DNA of 52,205 bases from the NCBI GenBank assembly GCA_964479225.1, contig CAYZLL010000004.1, positions 1-52,205 of the forward strand, written 5' to 3'. Shown here in pieces: positions 46,804 through 52,205 of the stretch. The notes below the pieces were generated by a model. That model was not told the origin of the DNA. It made no database searches and was given only the letters and a program-made list of their open reading frames with translations. Every line of letters begins with the position of its first letter. The stretch's first letter is position 1. Both the position numbers and the translations under genes were made by a program. Source of the DNA: an uncultured Smithella sp. (GTDB lineage Bacteria > Desulfobacterota > Syntrophia > Syntrophales > Smithellaceae).

Positions 46804-47811
46804 TCAATCATTATTTTTGAAACTTAGGGAGAAATAATCACGCAACGGAGACCATTCTTTAATCTTTGTCGTAACATCAACAAACCAAACAAATATTAAT
46901 GATATTAAAACCATTAAAAACTTGTTTTGCAACGCCTCTCTCTGTTTTCGCAGCTCAAAATCAGCGGATGATTCGCCTTCTCTTCTTGTACTTGAACCCA
47001 TTAGTCCCGTCATCAGAATTGCATATAGAAAGATGATAGTATACTTTGTTAACAATGAAAATATTGTAAAAAATATGTTGTTGTTAGTAATATATGTCAT
47101 TCTAAAAACAAAAATAAAAACAGAAAAGAAAAACAAAAGGCTGATAGTCCATGATGCAGTTTCAGACAGGTCAAGAAAAATACATATATAAAAGATAACT
47201 ATTGTGCCTATTATGCTGCCTATTGTTATTGCAGCGTCCGTATAATCTTTGTAAATAACCAATTTACCATTGAAATGAAGAAAAACTGAGATAACTGAAA
47301 TCAATAAAAGTGCGATGATAATATATTTTACAGTTTGATTTTTACTTTCACTCTCTGTCTGCTGCGTAGATTCTGTTGGCAGCTCAGATTTTTGTTTAAT
47401 ATTTTGTGTTTCTGCCTTTTGCGGCGCAGGAGAAACTTCTGTAGTCGCTGGATTCTGAGTTAAAGTTAATAGTCTCGCCTCTAATTCCGATTTCCTTTGA
47501 GTTGTAAGTTTTGTCAATGCGTCGGTATAAAATTGACTACCTTTGTGACCCTCAGAAAATGCTTTTCCATCGCGTGTTTTTATCCATTCTCGTTGCTCGT
47601 CTCTGAGAATAATTTTTTCAGGTTCACGAAGAACTGACATCAATTCTTTATAAATGCCATTAATATCTTTTTCAGCCGTTTCGAATTCATTTGACGTTTC
47701 AATGTACTGTTTATATTCTTCATCCGATATTTCAGGACTGTTTAAATCAGCCCATGCAAATGATACGAACAAAAATACACACAGCAACGACCTCATAATA
47801 GTTGCAACCAT
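46804..47811 (-). CDS. Signal peptide plus DUF1311 (LprI-like) periplasmic domain fused to a ~5-TM membrane domain
   Basis: Signal peptide MRSLLCVFLFVSFAWA. DUF1311-like core (INGIYKELMSVL...LRDEQREWIKTRD). A Thr/Gln/Glu/Ser-rich linker is followed by about five hydrophobic helices. Very AT-rich. The start is uncertain: ATG 47811, ATG 47829 or GTG 47856. Confidence 0.55.
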   Translation of the reverse strand: MVATIMRSLLCVFLFVSFAWADLNSPEISDEEYKQYIETSNEFETAEKDINGIYKELMSVLREPEKIILRDEQREWIKTRDGKAFSEGHKGSQFYTDALTKLTTQRKSELEARLLTLTQNPATTEVSPAPQKAETQNIKQKSELPTESTQQTESESKNQTVKYIIIALLLISVISVFLHFNGKLVIYKDYTDAAITIGSIIGTIVIFYICIFLDLSETASWTISLLFFFSVFIFVFRMTYITNNNIFFTIFSLLTKYTIIFLYAILMTGLMGSSTRREGESSADFELRKQREALQNKFLMVLISLIFVWFVDVTTKIKEWSPLRDYFSLSFKNND

Positions 47812-47858
47812 TTTTTCATCCTTGTCCATAAAAAATGTTTGTATGGATTTGTACACTA

Positions 47859-47971: not shown

Positions 47972-48006
47972 TAGGATAGTCCATAGCTACTCCAAAGGAA
48001 TGAAAG

Positions 48007-48035
48007 CGGGGTGTGGCGCGATAATCCACACCCCG
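48007..48035 (-). terminator. GC-rich hairpin just downstream of the 71-aa gene
   Basis: CGGGGTGTGG / CCACACCCCG form a 10-bp stem with a 9-nt loop, starting 7 nt after the stop codon. The minus-strand tail CTTTCATTCCTTT is only moderately T-rich. Confidence 0.5.
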
Positions 48036-48041
48036 AGTGTA

Positions 48042-48254
48042 CTATTTCAAGGCGCCCCAAGCCTGCCACTTATTGCAGGTATTGCTGGCCTGTTTGTCTT
48101 GGCCTTTCCAAGGACCGCCTTGAAGTAGACATTTGCCTTTGGAGCTTGAAGAATCCACAGTGACTCGCTGACCGAATTTGTCTACTTGACGGCTTCCTCC
48201 CCAGAAATTACAAACCGCACAGTTCTTGAAGCTTTTAGGCCAACTTTGAGACAT
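48042..48254 (-). CDS. Small Cys/Trp-rich protein of unknown function (71 aa)
   Basis: ATG 48254 is preceded by AAGGAGA. The product is MSQSWPKSFKNCAVCNFWGGSRQ...GKCLLQGGPW...NTCNKWQAW, with 4 Cys (CxxC plus two single Cys) and 5 Trp. A hairpin follows the stop. Confidence 0.6.
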   Translation of the reverse strand: MSQSWPKSFKNCAVCNFWGGSRQVDKFGQRVTVDSSSSKGKCLLQGGPWKGQDKQASNTCNKWQAWGALK

Positions 48255-48546
48255 TTCATTTCTCCTTTTCTTGTTTGCCACTCTTTCGTTAGTCAGATCA
48301 ATATGAGGTGGCTTTCATACTAATCTAACCTCTTATTAATAAATACTCTATATCTCCAATATTTATTTAATTCATTTTTCCGTAAATTTAAAACCATTCA
48401 TGTCTTTTAGCGGGGAATACTCTAACAGACTAATGTTCTGAGCTAATATATCTTTTCTTGTTGCTTCAGCTCGCGTTGATTTATGATATTTATTATGGAA
48501 TTCATAATTTTCCCAAAATAACTATACGGCAACAAGACAAAGCTTA

Positions 48547-49131
48547 TTATGCCAACTTTCTAGTTTGAGACTTGTACAGGTTATCAGCCTGTTGTAACAA
48601 GTGGTCATTATTATAAAGTTCTTCTGCAACTTGTTTCCATGTAATATGCTTTTTTTCAAAGACTTCGAGAGTACCTTTTCTGCCCCATGTTTTAGAATTC
48701 GTAAAATACTTTGATGATGCAAGCGCCACCACGTAAGTACTTATTTTCTCAAGTCCGGGGAGAGTCTTGATATATTCCCTGTCTTGTGCAAACTCTTCAT
48801 TTTGTTTAGGACTAAAGCTCTCAAAGACTTTTGCTTCAATGATTATGATTGCACTTTCCCCAAACAGACAGAGATCAAATGTCCTCTTTTGTGGCAATTC
48901 TCTTTGCCGAACGGATTCATCCATCTGCCAAAGAAAATCTCGATAGAAACATACTTCATAGCCAATGTCCCATTCACCATCCTTGCTGACATCTAATTTT
49001 AATGTATCAATCAGCCATTGAGCAAATTTTCCCGGATCTTCGCTGGCTTTCTGGTAGAGAACAGAGCAGAAAAACCGTTCATCTCTTGTCAGGTCAGACC
49101 ATTTATTGTCTTTGAAATAAGAAATACCCAT
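48547..49131 (-). CDS. Operon gene C: PD-(D/E)xK-like nuclease-fold protein (194 aa)
   Basis: The motif order is E59, D86 (TFDLCLF) and E99-x-K101 (IIIIEAKV), with hydrophobic strands in the expected places. An AGGAGGA RBS overlaps the stop codon of gene B. Confidence 0.6.
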   Translation of the reverse strand: MGISYFKDNKWSDLTRDERFFCSVLYQKASEDPGKFAQWLIDTLKLDVSKDGEWDIGYEVCFYRDFLWQMDESVRQRELPQKRTFDLCLFGESAIIIIEAKVFESFSPKQNEEFAQDREYIKTLPGLEKISTYVVALASSKYFTNSKTWGRKGTLEVFEKKHITWKQVAEELYNNDHLLQQADNLYKSQTRKLA

Positions 49132-49143
49132 GTAGATTTCCTC

Positions 49144-50400
49144 CTAAATATCAAATGCCTTACCCTCTTCAATTTCAAACACGTTATCAAAGTAATCTTT
49201 GAACTTTCCTCCAAATTCCGTATGAATAGGAATAAGTTGCTTTGGTTTGAAAGCATTTGCAAACGCTTTCAAATCTTTGACCGTCGCGTGTCCGCTGGTG
49301 TGGGCATACACAAAATTGACTCGTGGATCATTTCGATATGCCGCTATCTCTTCAGCGCCGAAGTATTCGCGATTTGTAAATTCAAGATAACCAAGCCACT
49401 GTGAATATATAACGTTGATAGGCTCTTCTTTTTTATAAGAATTCATGATCCTGCTTTTGGACATTTTGCTCAGATAGAGGAAGCCTGCCGGATTTTCGGC
49501 TAATTGTTCTTTCTTGATCCTATGCTCATATACTCTTTTCCTGAAGTCACCAAAGAAGCTGGCATTTTCCTTCAATTTCTTGTCTTGGCTGAAATCTGCA
49601 TACACGCCTATCAAATCCCATTCCATTGTTGGAACATGGATTGGAATATGTTGAGAGGCAAGAGTAATTTTCACCTGTTCCAGTACCCATGCGGTATAAA
49701 TATCAATGATGAGCGTCTTGTGTGTCCTTAAACAAGCGCGATAAGCGGATACAATCCGGTCAATGTTTTGGGATGATGAGATTAGGAACGAGAGATTTTT
49801 CTGGTCTTTTATCGTTTCATATATTTTCTTTTCGACAGCGGTTTCCGTGGGAAAATCGTCGTTGCTGCGCTTCATCATAGTGCCTTCCATGAAAAGCAGA
49901 TCAATATTCCTTGGTGGATCATGGACAATCTTATCAAAAAGAATCGATTTTCTACCATGCGCCCGAAAATCTCCGCTATAAAAGACGCGCTTTCCTTCCG
50001 CCTCAATCAAAAACGCATAAGCGTCGATTGCTGAATGGTCAACCAGATATGGCTTTATGGTAAAATCACCTATCTGGAATGGCTGCCAACTTTTGAAATA
50101 TGAAAATTTATTGCTGTGTAATTCTTTACCCAGGAGCATCCGCGTTGCGTCGATGAGATGCTTTCCAAGCTCGCCAATGTATACAGGAATGGAGGAATCA
50201 ATGGTATCGATGAGACCGAAATGGTCTTGATGGGGGTGACTGATCAGGACTGCATCGATTTTGACATTTGTCAGATCTATCTCTTGGCTCGTTTTGCTGA
50301 GTGGCATACCAATATCAAGCAATATCGTTGTCTTTTCTGAAGATAACTGGATACATGTTCCGCCTATCTCCTTGCTTCCTCTGTGAATAAGTATTTTCAA
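49144..50400 (-). CDS. Operon gene B: metallo-beta-lactamase fold, beta-CASP-type nuclease (418 aa)
   Basis: MBL motifs LLDIG, SHPHQDH (HxHxDH), VDHS and YSGDF. Beta-CASP-like MEGT, HTSGHA and the final PIHTE. TTG start (MKILIHRG...). Confidence 0.75.
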   Translation of the reverse strand: MKILIHRGSKEIGGTCIQLSSEKTTILLDIGMPLSKTSQEIDLTNVKIDAVLISHPHQDHFGLIDTIDSSIPVYIGELGKHLIDATRMLLGKELHSNKFSYFKSWQPFQIGDFTIKPYLVDHSAIDAYAFLIEAEGKRVFYSGDFRAHGRKSILFDKIVHDPPRNIDLLFMEGTMMKRSNDDFPTETAVEKKIYETIKDQKNLSFLISSSQNIDRIVSAYRACLRTHKTLIIDIYTAWVLEQVKITLASQHIPIHVPTMEWDLIGVYADFSQDKKLKENASFFGDFRKRVYEHRIKKEQLAENPAGFLYLSKMSKSRIMNSYKKEEPINVIYSQWLGYLEFTNREYFGAEEIAAYRNDPRVNFVYAHTSGHATVKDLKAFANAFKPKQLIPIHTEFGGKFKDYFDNVFEIEEGKAFDI

Positions 50401-50467
50401 TTGGCCTTACCCTTTCATTTTCTTTATTACCATTCCGTTGATTATCCCTATATTCAACACCGATCTT

Positions 50468-50496
50468 TAAATACACAACATTAAGAGCAATATCAA
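50468..50496 (-). promoter_or_regulatory. Possible internal sigma70-like promoter ahead of gene B
   Basis: On the minus strand: TTGATA (50496-50491), a 17-nt spacer, then TATTTA (50473-50468). AT-rich DNA produces such matches by chance. Confidence 0.25.
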
Positions 50497-51401
50497 AATA
50501 ATATTTTGTTTTTCTGTTTGTTCAGATTCAGGTCCACATCTTTTCCAAAAAAGTATAATCCGGCTAAACGCTTCTTTTCAATACTCTCATAAAGATGACT
50601 TATGATTTTATCTTTTAGCCTGTCTATTACATTCTGGTTGAATCCTGCAATAACGAGAAGCGGCCTTGGTTCTATGGCTGATATCTGAACTTTCGCGAGA
50701 TATGATTTATCTCTTATAATTCCAAGCGTCTTTTTGGTTTCAATCGCAGTTTGATATGCTTCGATTATCCGCTCTTTATTTTTTATTGCAAAGTCATAAT
50801 ATTTTTTAATTTGTTTATTGATTTCGTTGCTGTAAAGCCTCGAATCAAAAATCTGCTTCAATTCTATGAAAACAAGTTTTTTGATCTTTTTATCGAAATT
50901 GACCAGATCGATGCTCGTATTATCTGTTTTATCGTCATCATCATTTTCTGATTCTCCTGGAAACGCGGCCACTTCAACATCAACGATCGTTTCCTTGTTT
51001 TTCTCGACAAGCTTGGACTGAATAGCTTTATCTTCCCCCGCATATACGGCAATGTTCGTCTGCACGGTCTTAAGATCTTTAATAATATTTCTTACATTGG
51101 GACAAGCATCGTCGCTTATTTTAAGCTCTCCATGGTCTGGCAATATCTTCACATAGGGAGATTTGAGTTTGGCAATGAGATATTTGTAATGAACCTCGCA
51201 ACATATTTCTTTTCCTTGCAAGCTGATTCGCAGCATATTCCCCATTTTTGAGTAAACATAAATGCTATGCGACCGGAGCTGAATGTTGATATTACGATCG
51301 GTATGTGAAAGCGCAACAATCTCTTTCCACCACTTTTCAGCTAGTAGCTTTTCGACAAGTAGGCTATCTTTTTGAAGCCGGACAAAGGTATTCTTTCGCA
51401 T
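50493..51401 (-). CDS. Operon gene A: unknown N-terminal domain plus PD-(D/E)xK-like nuclease core (302 aa)
   Basis: IVDVEVAAF strand, acidic loop ESENDDDDKTDNT, D165 (SIDLV), then E180-x-K182 (VFIELKQ). A GGAGGG RBS precedes ATG 51401. Confidence 0.55.
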   Translation of the reverse strand: MRKNTFVRLQKDSLLVEKLLAEKWWKEIVALSHTDRNINIQLRSHSIYVYSKMGNMLRISLQGKEICCEVHYKYLIAKLKSPYVKILPDHGELKISDDACPNVRNIIKDLKTVQTNIAVYAGEDKAIQSKLVEKNKETIVDVEVAAFPGESENDDDDKTDNTSIDLVNFDKKIKKLVFIELKQIFDSRLYSNEINKQIKKYYDFAIKNKERIIEAYQTAIETKKTLGIIRDKSYLAKVQISAIEPRPLLVIAGFNQNVIDRLKDKIISHLYESIEKKRLAGLYFFGKDVDLNLNKQKNKILF

Positions 51402-51410
51402 TGTTCCCTC

Positions 51411-52205
51411 CTAGTGTAGTGCGTCTAACGCTTCTTTACATTTGTTGATCTTTCCAAATATTTTTTCCACCGACGCACTCCAAACGAACACTTGAGGGTT
51501 TTGGTTGTGATTTTCCAAATATTCGTTGATGGCGGAAATCAATTCCGGAACGCTGGAGAAAGAGCCACGCCGGATACGTTTGTCGGTGATTTCGCGGAAC
51601 CAGCGCTCGACCATGTTCAACCAAGAACTGGAAGTCGGCGTAAAATGTAGATGAAACCGCGGATGGCGCTTGAACCAAGCTTTGACACGCGGGTGCTTGT
51701 GCGTGGCATAATTGTCCACGATCAGATGAAGATCCTGATCTGTTGGTGTTTGCGTATCGATCTTCTTGAGGAACCGGATAAACTCTTGGTGCCGATGGCG
51801 CGGCATACAATCGCCAATGACCTTGCCGTTGAGCATGCTCAGAGCCGCAAACAAAGTCGTTGTGCCGTTGCGCTTGTAGTCGTGAGTTTGTCGTGCTGGA
51901 ATTCCCGATCTGAGAGGAAGAAGCGGTTGCGTGCGCTCCAGGGCCTGTATTGGGCTCTTTTCGTCCACGCACAGAACCAACGCCTTCTCCGGCGGGTTCA
52001 GATACAGGCCCACGACATCGGTCAGCTTTTCGACAAAGTGTTTGTCGCGGCTGAGTTTGAAAGTCTCTATTAAATGGGGTTTGAGGTTGTGCATTCGCCA
52101 GATGCGACGAATACTGGCCTCTGACAAATGCTGTGCCTTGGCCATGCTGCGCGTGCTCCAATGCGTGGCATTCTGAGGTTTCGTATGCAAGGTGGCTTCG
52201 ACAAC
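51411..52205 (-). mobile_element. IS630-family (Tc1/mariner-like DDE) transposase gene, C-terminal ~264 codons; N-terminus off-window
   Basis: The catalytic triad is visible: [16 protein letters not shown], and E in NMVERWF 36 positions after the second D (D-x35-E, within the usual family range). The reading frame stays open to the window edge. The stop TAG lies inside a CTAG tetranucleotide. Confidence 0.85.

Follow-up and report, generated by a model that had tools for sequence, protein, structure and literature searches.

A conserved beta-CASP hydrolase with exchangeable PD-(D/E)xK partners: a candidate two-component defence module in an uncultured Smithella

RNase J and other beta-CASP enzymes of the metallo-beta-lactamase (MBL) fold have both endonuclease and 5'-to-3' exonuclease activity. 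Related proteins have been drawn into immunity. In type VII CRISPR-Cas, the beta-CASP nuclease Cas14 is recruited as the cutter by a separate recognition component (PMC13069675), and the 6A-MBL system of Pseudomonas aeruginosa, which has an MBL-fold enzyme, is a validated anti-phage system (mentioned in 10.1101/2025.09.30.679545 and PMC13276650). A regulatory layout is also on record: divergent WYL regulators of the BrxR/CapW type accompany BREX, CBASS and other systems (PMC9122601, PMC9122588). Here we analyse a 52,205-nucleotide (nt) stretch of contig CAYZLL010000004.1 from an uncultured Smithella species (the window), in which three co-directional genes, termed A, B and C, encode a PD-(D/E)xK-like protein, an MBL/beta-CASP hydrolase and a second, single-domain PD-(D/E)xK nuclease-like protein. 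An initial annotation had read all three as one undescribed, nuclease-only defence system. Comparison with related loci points to a different grouping, in which A and B form a recurring two-component module with a candidate role in defence and C is a gene of separate origin.

The MBL/beta-CASP hydrolase B and its partner A

The sequence of B predicts a catalytically complete, RNase J/CPSF-like MBL/beta-CASP hydrolase in which all catalytic residues are intact. MBL motifs 1-4 and beta-CASP motifs A-C are present and the metal ligands are conserved, which places B in the MBL/beta-CASP superfamily. The motifs read HPHQDH (residues 55-60), DHS (121-123), SGDF (142-145), HTSGHA (367-372) and PIHTE (391-395), and D29, H55, H57, D59, H60, D121-H122-S123, S142-G143-D144-F145, H367, H371, P391 and H393 are invariant in 19 homologues. 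Pfam matches above the cut-offs were obtained to Lactamase_B_2 (1.1e-14), Lactamase_B and RMMBL (3.1e-8). The residue at beta-CASP motif C tracks the substrate class of these enzymes; because B has a histidine at the presumed motif C (H393) and matches RMMBL, it groups with RNase J and CPSF within the superfamily. The TTG start codon is taken as correct because N-terminal residues (5-18) are invariant in homologues, including, ahead of the first internal methionine, I5, H6, R7, G8, E11, I12, G13, G14, T15 and C16 in the same set of 19.

B has more than 6300 homologues, which span Desulfobacterota, Acidobacteriota, Nitrospirota, Planctomycetota, Proteobacteria and plasmids. Their distribution is patchy, with relatives in 299 stretches of a species-representative collection of 185,579 species. 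Public records annotate these genes as "MBL fold metallo-hydrolase", "ribonuclease J" or "hypothetical protein", and the JGI labels many B members 'ribonuclease J'. Such labels would suit a housekeeping RNA-processing enzyme of the RNase J kind with unrelated cargo as its neighbours, and RNase J is indeed the best match of B both among curated families and among solved structures (7pcr, 3.7e-14). However, the best NCBIfam match reached 59.4 bits against a cut-off of 400 (TIGR00649), with NF047419 at 54.7 bits against 820; the match to the solved RNase J is limited to residues 7-230, and B is ~130 residues shorter (418 versus ~550 amino acids (aa)). On these grounds B was not assigned to the RNase J family. 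The patchy distribution, the fusions to PD-(D/E)xK proteins and the consistent pairing across loci described below likewise speak against a housekeeping role, which we regard as very improbable.

Eighty loci around B homologues were fetched from species-representative genomes, open reading frames (ORFs) were called and the neighbours clustered; partner counts were scored over 82 B loci. A PD-(D/E)xK-like protein lies within three genes of B in 62 of the 82, belonging to one of several unrelated-looking families. The A family is the largest neighbour cluster of B (28 of about 80 loci). Its gene is mostly found directly downstream of B, at gaps of ~10-20 nt, and lies upstream only in the window and in loci L003, L063 and L068. 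Two A homologues at 43-45% identity both sit directly downstream of a B-type MBL gene. Fusion proteins occur in both orders, B-A (P0090, P0112) and A-B (P0412), and in every context examined a member of the A family is either the neighbour of a B-type MBL or joined to one in a single chain. The frequent adjacency, the position of distant A homologues beside MBL genes and the fusions in both orders lead us to regard A and B as a genuine, recurring and widespread two-component module, and provide strong comparative evidence that the two proteins would act together physically. The initial annotation had proposed looking for recurrence of the genes as neighbours in other genomes, and for A and B this is borne out. 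In two assemblies, L096 (4742-6032) and L097 (4746-5989), the B-type MBL gene that lies upstream of an A homologue is itself split into two ORFs, owing either to an assembly frameshift or to pseudogene formation.

The AlphaFold model of A (pLDDT 87.7) comprises two domains: an N-terminal alpha/beta domain (~residues 1-105) and a putative C-terminal PD-(D/E)xK domain. The secondary structure of the C-terminal domain in this confident model fits the PD-(D/E)xK core, and D141, E143, D165, E180 and K182 are invariant in the family alignment. Weak Pfam matches among 35 members of the family were to SduA_C (20 members, best 2.1e-5), YhcG_C (15), DUF234 (8) and PDDEXK_4 (5). The N-terminal domain weakly resembles YjbR/DUF1801/frataxin-like folds (Foldseek probability at most 0.63) and, as modelled, appears to be novel, with no known relative. 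Some A-like proteins (P0439, P0470 and P0488) are fused to a REase-ARP/PDDEXK_13 domain and have two PD-(D/E)xK-type domains per chain; an MBL is therefore not the sole possible companion nuclease of A.

Partner exchange and the separate arrival of C

In loci that lack an A-type gene, members of other families follow B: cluster 2 (~260 aa, 14 loci), cluster 5 (~320 aa, 11 loci), cluster 6 (~360 aa, 8 loci) and cluster 22. A D...ExK signature is kept in all five partner clusters at a conservation of at least 85%, and the profiles of some clusters are remotely similar to each other in the nuclease core (hhalign probabilities 71-86%). DUF2779 proteins, reportedly listed with the RNase H-like superfamily in one paper (PMC3985635), take partner positions in four B loci; the DUF2779 protein that heads the A-B-C operon of L083 (1852-3318) has a sub-threshold match to NCBIfam UU173 (59.5 bits, cut-off 225). 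The recurring unit is B plus one PD-(D/E)xK partner, usually downstream; in many cases a WYL regulator and genes for small accessory proteins accompany it.

Across 280 locus pairs, the identities of B and of A are uncorrelated (Spearman 0.11), and in some genomes B is present twice, each copy having its own kind of partner (L005/L006, L035/L053). The closest relative of window B lies on a metagenome contig, L093, at 92% nucleotide identity. Window B is not a mosaic of L093-like and L003-like sequence; it is uniformly nearer to L093, falling to 83-89% only in the last ~250 nt. Taken together, the non-mosaic B, the uncorrelated identities and the two-copy genomes argue for frequent partner exchange around a conserved B, whose sequence may serve as the recombination anchor for the flanking cassettes.

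A second kind of partner, not of the PD-(D/E)xK type, is an unannotated 160-aa family found near B in several loci (L093 8959-9441; P0016, P0028, P0044, P0066) and fused in some genomes to the C terminus of B (~573 aa in total). At least five recurrent small-protein families (90-220 aa) accompany B in loci that include L001, L004, L011, L017, L021, L026, L057, L058, L072, L092, L094 and L095; none is present in the window. They comprise a cysteine-rich family (16 members), a family of ~130 aa (11 members, also on plasmids) and a 107-aa family with a HAD-like DxDGT motif, and none of the families tested has a Pfam match.

C appears to be a stand-alone PD-(D/E)xK nuclease gene that does not belong to the A-B module. 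In Foldseek searches of the PDB with its AlphaFold model (pLDDT 92.4), almost all top matches were PD-(D/E)xK nucleases (E from 2e-4, probability up to 0.96, with low TM-scores of 0.24-0.34), including the R2 retrotransposon endonuclease, BstEII, McrC, the cap-snatching endonucleases of bunyaviruses and arenaviruses, and Can2. Residues E59, D86, E99 and K101 are invariant, and the fold together with this E...D...ExK signature places C in the PD-(D/E)xK superfamily. With the domains of B, the profiles and conserved residues of A and the fold of C, the label "nuclease-only" given to the trio at the outset is fair as a description of its chemistry. Sequence-profile searches of the PDB with the A alignment and with the C alignment found nothing, and profile-profile comparison detected no link of C to A or to any partner cluster.

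The C family has 637 homologues. All four examined at ~45-55% identity are solitary on long contigs with no MBL nearby, amid integrases, IS66 fragments, toxin-antitoxin pairs or unannotated genes. Members of the family occur in only two of the 82 B loci, and, apart from the window, a single lineage (L003/L083-85) has C adjoining B; the solitary status of C is based on the four distant contexts and these B-seeded loci.

A comparison of the window with L093 suggests how C arrived. The two share their downstream chromosomal flank, including an LprI-domain membrane protein and a LapA-domain protein. Their homology covers only 50414-49139 (B and a few bases) and then resumes at 48496, with window 48496-48252 being 90.6% identical in DNA sequence to L093 11943-12187. 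In L093, A is missing, and the genes upstream of B are those of a divergent WYL-WCX regulator, a TPR protein and three small proteins; C is missing as well, and B is followed downstream by the gene of a 266-aa PD-(D/E)xK protein of the cluster-2 type. A remnant in the window (Table 1) is 65% identical to residues 213-263 of that 266-aa protein (tblastn, E = 1e-16). Because this 3' remnant of an L093-type gene lies directly past C, we conclude that C replaced most of an earlier partner gene. We propose that C entered a hotspot in this way, by displacing the previous downstream partner of B, and that it may now be co-transcribed with B; its product probably acts independently.

The idea that A, B and C constitute one obligate three-nuclease defence system draws on their co-directional, tight packing, on the overlap of the ribosome-binding site of C with the stop codon of B, and on the collinear A-B-C order in L003 and L083-85 (76-77% nucleotide identity), which shows that this order has persisted in two lineages. 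It is opposed by the solitary C homologues, by the rarity of C among B loci, by the absence of both A and C beside the B of L093 in the same chromosomal flank, by the displaced-gene remnant, and by a B-C spacer of 226 nt in L083, as compared with 12 nt in the window. Since C thus appears as an independent gene that displaced an earlier partner, we consider the three-gene system improbable. The initial annotation had named a lack of co-occurrence elsewhere as grounds for abandoning its proposal; this is the situation for C, but not for A and B. Its reading of a candidate undescribed defence-type system is accordingly retained for A and B, as an unnamed and probably defensive module, and dropped for a unit that includes C.

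Upstream of A, the window contains an insertion sequence (IS). Elements of the IS630 family target CTAG sites, where insertion duplicates TA. The TAG that ends the transposase ORF (51413-51411) lies within CTAG at 51414-51411, the GGAGGG ribosome-binding site of A (51411-51406) follows directly, and the ATG of A is at 51401. The element sits 9 nt upstream of this start codon, and its far end lies outside the window. In the closest A-B-C relative, the position upstream of A is occupied by a DUF2779 gene and a divergent WYL regulator. The element has probably cut A-B-C off from its native upstream genes and control. Because it ends 9 nt from the ATG of A, transcription of A may start within the element or result from read-through.

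The features of the locus are collected in Table 1. A, B and C are real genes and not chance ORFs, since their homologues number hundreds to thousands and are conserved. The gap between A and B is 92 nt; at the B-C junction, AGGAGGA (49145-49139) overlaps the TAG stop of B (49146-49144) ahead of the ATG of C. The GC content is 36.5% for A, 40.8% for B and 38.3% for C, as compared with 47.2% for window positions 1-46000. Re-reading of the sequence reproduced the coordinates, gaps, strand and ribosome-binding site overlap of the initial annotation. Every residue it had quoted for A, B and C falls on an invariant alignment column, and its statements on AT-richness and on an adjoining IS630 element agree with our results.

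The same applies to its statement that methyltransferase, ATPase and helicase genes are missing, for the visible flank, as the window ends in or just past the IS element. No methyltransferase domain was found in the ORFs scanned within 46.8-52.2 kb, the region upstream of the IS lying outside the window, and a classical restriction-modification system was rejected for want of an adjacent one in this range. In the ORF list, A, B and C have no small intervening or neighbouring ORF with homologues that could be the antitoxin of a toxin-antitoxin module. Promoter-like and terminator-like sites were no more frequent than in shuffled sequence, and no meaningful direct or inverted repeats were found to flank the A-B-C block.

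Table 1. Positions of the genes, junctions and remnants at the A-B-C locus
Feature	Position (nt)	Strand	Description
Gene A	50493-51401	(-)	302 aa; A-family PD-(D/E)xK-like partner of B
Gene B	49144-50400	(-)	418 aa, TTG start; MBL/beta-CASP nuclease, conserved hub of the module
Gene C	48547-49131	(-)	194 aa; single-domain PD-(D/E)xK nuclease-like protein
B-C junction	49132-49146	(-)	TAG stop of B overlaps the AGGAGGA ribosome-binding site of C; 12-nt spacer
Remnant of 266-aa partner gene	48378-48521	(-)	~last 48 codons, non-coding, directly past the C stop codon
IS630-type element/gene A junction	51402-51414	(-)	CTAG site and GGAGGG ribosome-binding site
IS630-family (DDE_3) transposase ORF	51411-52190	(-)	Pfam DDE_3 (DDE transposase superfamily), E = 6.5e-22

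Beyond the remnant, the gene at 46804-47856 (minus strand, 33% GC) encodes a protein that starts with an LprI (lysozyme-inhibitor-like) domain; its C-terminal region contains long hydrophobic stretches and, by eye, would span the membrane. The gene is conserved in this position in L093, and the low GC content therefore extends past the nuclease block. A small ORF at 48042-48281 (minus strand) would encode 70-79 aa with four cysteines and has a good ribosome-binding site before an internal ATG at 48254; it gave no family match in any library scanned. A 10-bp GC-rich hairpin lies 3' of this ORF (~48005-48040), and only the 3' end of the ORF and the hairpin are common to the window and L093.

Genomic setting and candidate role of the A-B module

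A divergent WYL-WCX regulator is encoded upstream of the B module in L083-85, L090, L091 and L093, and WYL regulators form a 12-locus neighbour cluster of B. GmrSD and a DEAD-helicase/PLD pair are encoded next to the closest A-B-C relative, and a Rhizobium plasmid copy adjoins a type IIG restriction-modification system. The module in L090 adjoins an ADP-ribosylglycohydrolase (ARG) gene and an ARPP-domain gene. Neighbourhoods centred on ARG with such components have been predicted to be antiviral, and a rapidly evolving REase domain has been described in predicted antiviral systems (PMC9503650); going by its Pfam name, the REase-ARP domain fused to A-like proteins may be this domain.

B-like modules are present on 11 plasmids, of which six are predicted to be conjugative or mobilisable, and one plasmid copy lies a few genes from a MobF relaxase. 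Neither B nor C was found in INPHARED phages or IMG/VR viral contigs, and neither A nor C on PLSDB plasmids. The mobile, defence-like setting described in the initial annotation is borne out by the WYL regulators, the defence neighbours, the plasmid copies and the integrases near B.

Plasmid carriage and relaxase proximity could also indicate that the module serves the mobile element itself, in anti-restriction, as an entry nuclease, or in plasmid or island maintenance. Frequent integrase and transposase neighbours and the IS element abutting the block in the window would fit such a role. Nevertheless, the window and L093 share a chromosomal site beside conserved housekeeping genes, WYL regulators and restriction genes typically accompany systems of host defence, and the family is absent from the phage and viral collections. 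We judge service to a mobile element to be improbable, and somewhat more so than the three-gene system.

Instead, the patchy distribution, the plasmid copies, the absence from phages, the divergent WYL regulators and the defence neighbours favour a defence role. Among 148 random B neighbours, we found WYL regulators (4), GmrSD (2), NERD (2), AbiEi/AbiEii, a SIR2 partner of Argonaute, HEC-05, PDC-S01, PDC-S22, a type II methylase and integrases. With moderate confidence, we propose that A and B make up a nuclease module with two components. It would belong to an uncharacterised, horizontally mobile family, and its most likely targets are invading nucleic acids.

Several points weigh against this proposal. 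The defence genes among the 148 neighbours were counted without a matched background control. No named homologue ties A, B or C to defence: a search of PADLOC-DB v2.0.0 gave no significant match, the best being short and partial (B to LmuA, E = 0.019; C to JetD, E = 0.0019) and A having none. The model of A found no significant Foldseek match in the PDB or among viral structures, so that its designation as a nuclease rests on the weak profile matches and the invariant residues; the Foldseek check that the initial annotation had recommended thus supported PD-(D/E)xK folds for C and returned nothing significant for A. B is unusually conserved for a defence effector, with 55-68% amino-acid identity across loci of four phyla. 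The collinear A-B-C order in a second lineage means that C may make a functional contribution. Finally, the kind of nucleic acid cut (RNA or DNA), the assembly of A and B into a complex and the sequence in which they act are all inferred.

The remaining counter-evidence bears on a specific alternative, in which the module takes part in a DNA-damage response or repair. B would then resemble SNM1/Artemis and its partner a structure-specific endonuclease, both acting on damaged or cross-linked DNA under a WYL switch that senses single-stranded DNA. The divergent WYL-WCX regulators upstream of several B loci are compatible with this, as WYL regulators also control DNA-damage responses; such control is described for DriD, PafBC-like regulators and SiwR. 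LexA-type and ImuB/UmuC-type genes occur twice each among the 148 neighbours, and in L091 (10388-13111) a 111-aa gene and a gene for a shortened, DnaE-like polymerase (791 aa; PHP, DNA_pol3_alpha and finger domains) come after the B module, suggesting a possible link to damage-inducible mutagenesis cassettes. The high conservation of B fits repair as well. In contrast, the histidine at the presumed motif C and RMMBL are a signature of RNase J/CPSF and not of SNM1/Artemis, and restriction and abortive-infection genes are among the neighbours. The distribution is very patchy, multi-copy genomes carry different partners, partners are swapped and replaced, and copies reside on plasmids. A repair pathway would be expected to show none of these features. 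Because of this copy-number variation, partner swapping, plasmid carriage and restriction-type company, we rate repair below defence and consider it unlikely.

If A and B are defensive, a working mechanism can be suggested by analogy with RNase J-type enzymes and Shedu-like nucleases. The PD-(D/E)xK partner, here A, would bind B and supply target recognition and the first endonucleolytic cut, and B would then degrade the strand laid bare in this way, much like RNase J and other beta-CASP enzymes. The diversity of partners would mirror shifts in specificity for which mobile elements select. In relatives, a WYL regulator responding to single-stranded DNA or damage signals would restrain expression.

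A broader interpretation, which we put forward tentatively and hold to be less likely than the defensive role of A and B itself, is that the B family represents an undescribed class of modular anti-invader systems. B would be a fixed executioner; PD-(D/E)xK partners (A-type, DUF2779-type and at least four others) and accessory proteins would give specificity, and the B gene would anchor cassette exchange. The window might then capture an exchange in progress, with the partner replaced by C, a remnant left behind and A newly introduced upstream.

A defensive A-B module would add a widespread family, with thousands of B homologues missed by detection tools, to bacterial immunity, and would give functional context to the unannotated partner families, the N-terminal domain of A and the small accessory proteins. 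Its design would resemble that of type VII CRISPR-Cas, with a protein as the recognition module. A damage-response role would instead reveal a new pathway by which anaerobic bacteria of soils and sediments process nucleic acids under WYL control. A near-invariant enzyme amid rapidly exchanged nuclease partners offers a natural experiment on the swapping of specificity modules; in our opinion, the most attractive aspect of the locus is this conserved beta-CASP hub with interchangeable nuclease partners and a visible exchange event.

Comparison with known systems

When A, B and C were scanned against Pfam, NCBIfam and PHROGs, the only matches were generic MBL ones for B, and Pfam has no family that names A, C or any partner cluster. 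Literature searches on beta-CASP/MBL proteins in combination with defence, WYL, Shedu, PDDEXK, DUF2779 or REase-ARP retrieved no description of the A-B pair. The pairing is unnamed in PADLOC v2, Pfam, NCBIfam (June 2026 release) and the searched literature, in agreement with the initial annotation, which could assign the locus to no named system.

A is most similar to Shedu (SduA), a DUF4263/SduA_C PD-(D/E)xK nuclease whose N-terminal sensor domain varies: in A, too, a variable-type domain precedes a putative PD-(D/E)xK domain, its nearest Pfam relative is SduA_C, and its setting resembles a defence island. However, A itself scores 12.6 bits against an SduA_C cut-off of 27 and has no PADLOC Shedu match. 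Moreover, Shedu consists of one gene, whereas A consistently comes with an MBL/beta-CASP nuclease, as an adjacent gene or as a fusion. A was not classified as Shedu for these reasons.

B shares MBL motifs 1-4, the histidines in presumed motifs B and C and RMMBL with RNase J and CPSF-73. Unlike them, the B family is accessory, patchy, horizontally mobile and paired with PD-(D/E)xK proteins. Like type VII CRISPR-Cas, the module would combine a beta-CASP cutter with a recognition component, and B weakly matches Cas14; the partner of B, however, is a protein nuclease and not a crRNA complex, and B was not assigned to Cas14 (NF045584; 53.1 bits, cut-off 800). The five neighbouring ORFs scanned gave no cas-family match, and no repeat array was found in 46.4-52.2 kb.

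An MBL-fold enzyme is also what links B to 6A-MBL. Here B scores 16 bits against a cut-off of 220 (NF058524) and the 6A-MBL partner genes are missing. This lead was dropped: the AAA ATPases encoded near a few B homologues resemble IteA at scores below the cut-off, and no family of the 6A-MBL system is among their NCBIfam matches. An anti-Pycsar, Apyc1-type cyclic-nucleotide phosphodiesterase (PF23023) was rejected at 12.8 bits against 50, the match covering residues 25-67 only.

The regulatory layout offers the remaining parallel. Divergent wHTH-WYL-WCX genes upstream of the B module in the loci named above recall WYL-regulated defence operons; the genes near B differ from these in matching no known system, and in the window any such regulator would be hidden by the IS element and the window end. 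In kind, A-B is a nuclease-based, WYL-associated candidate defence module, and as such a variation on a familiar theme and not a new category.

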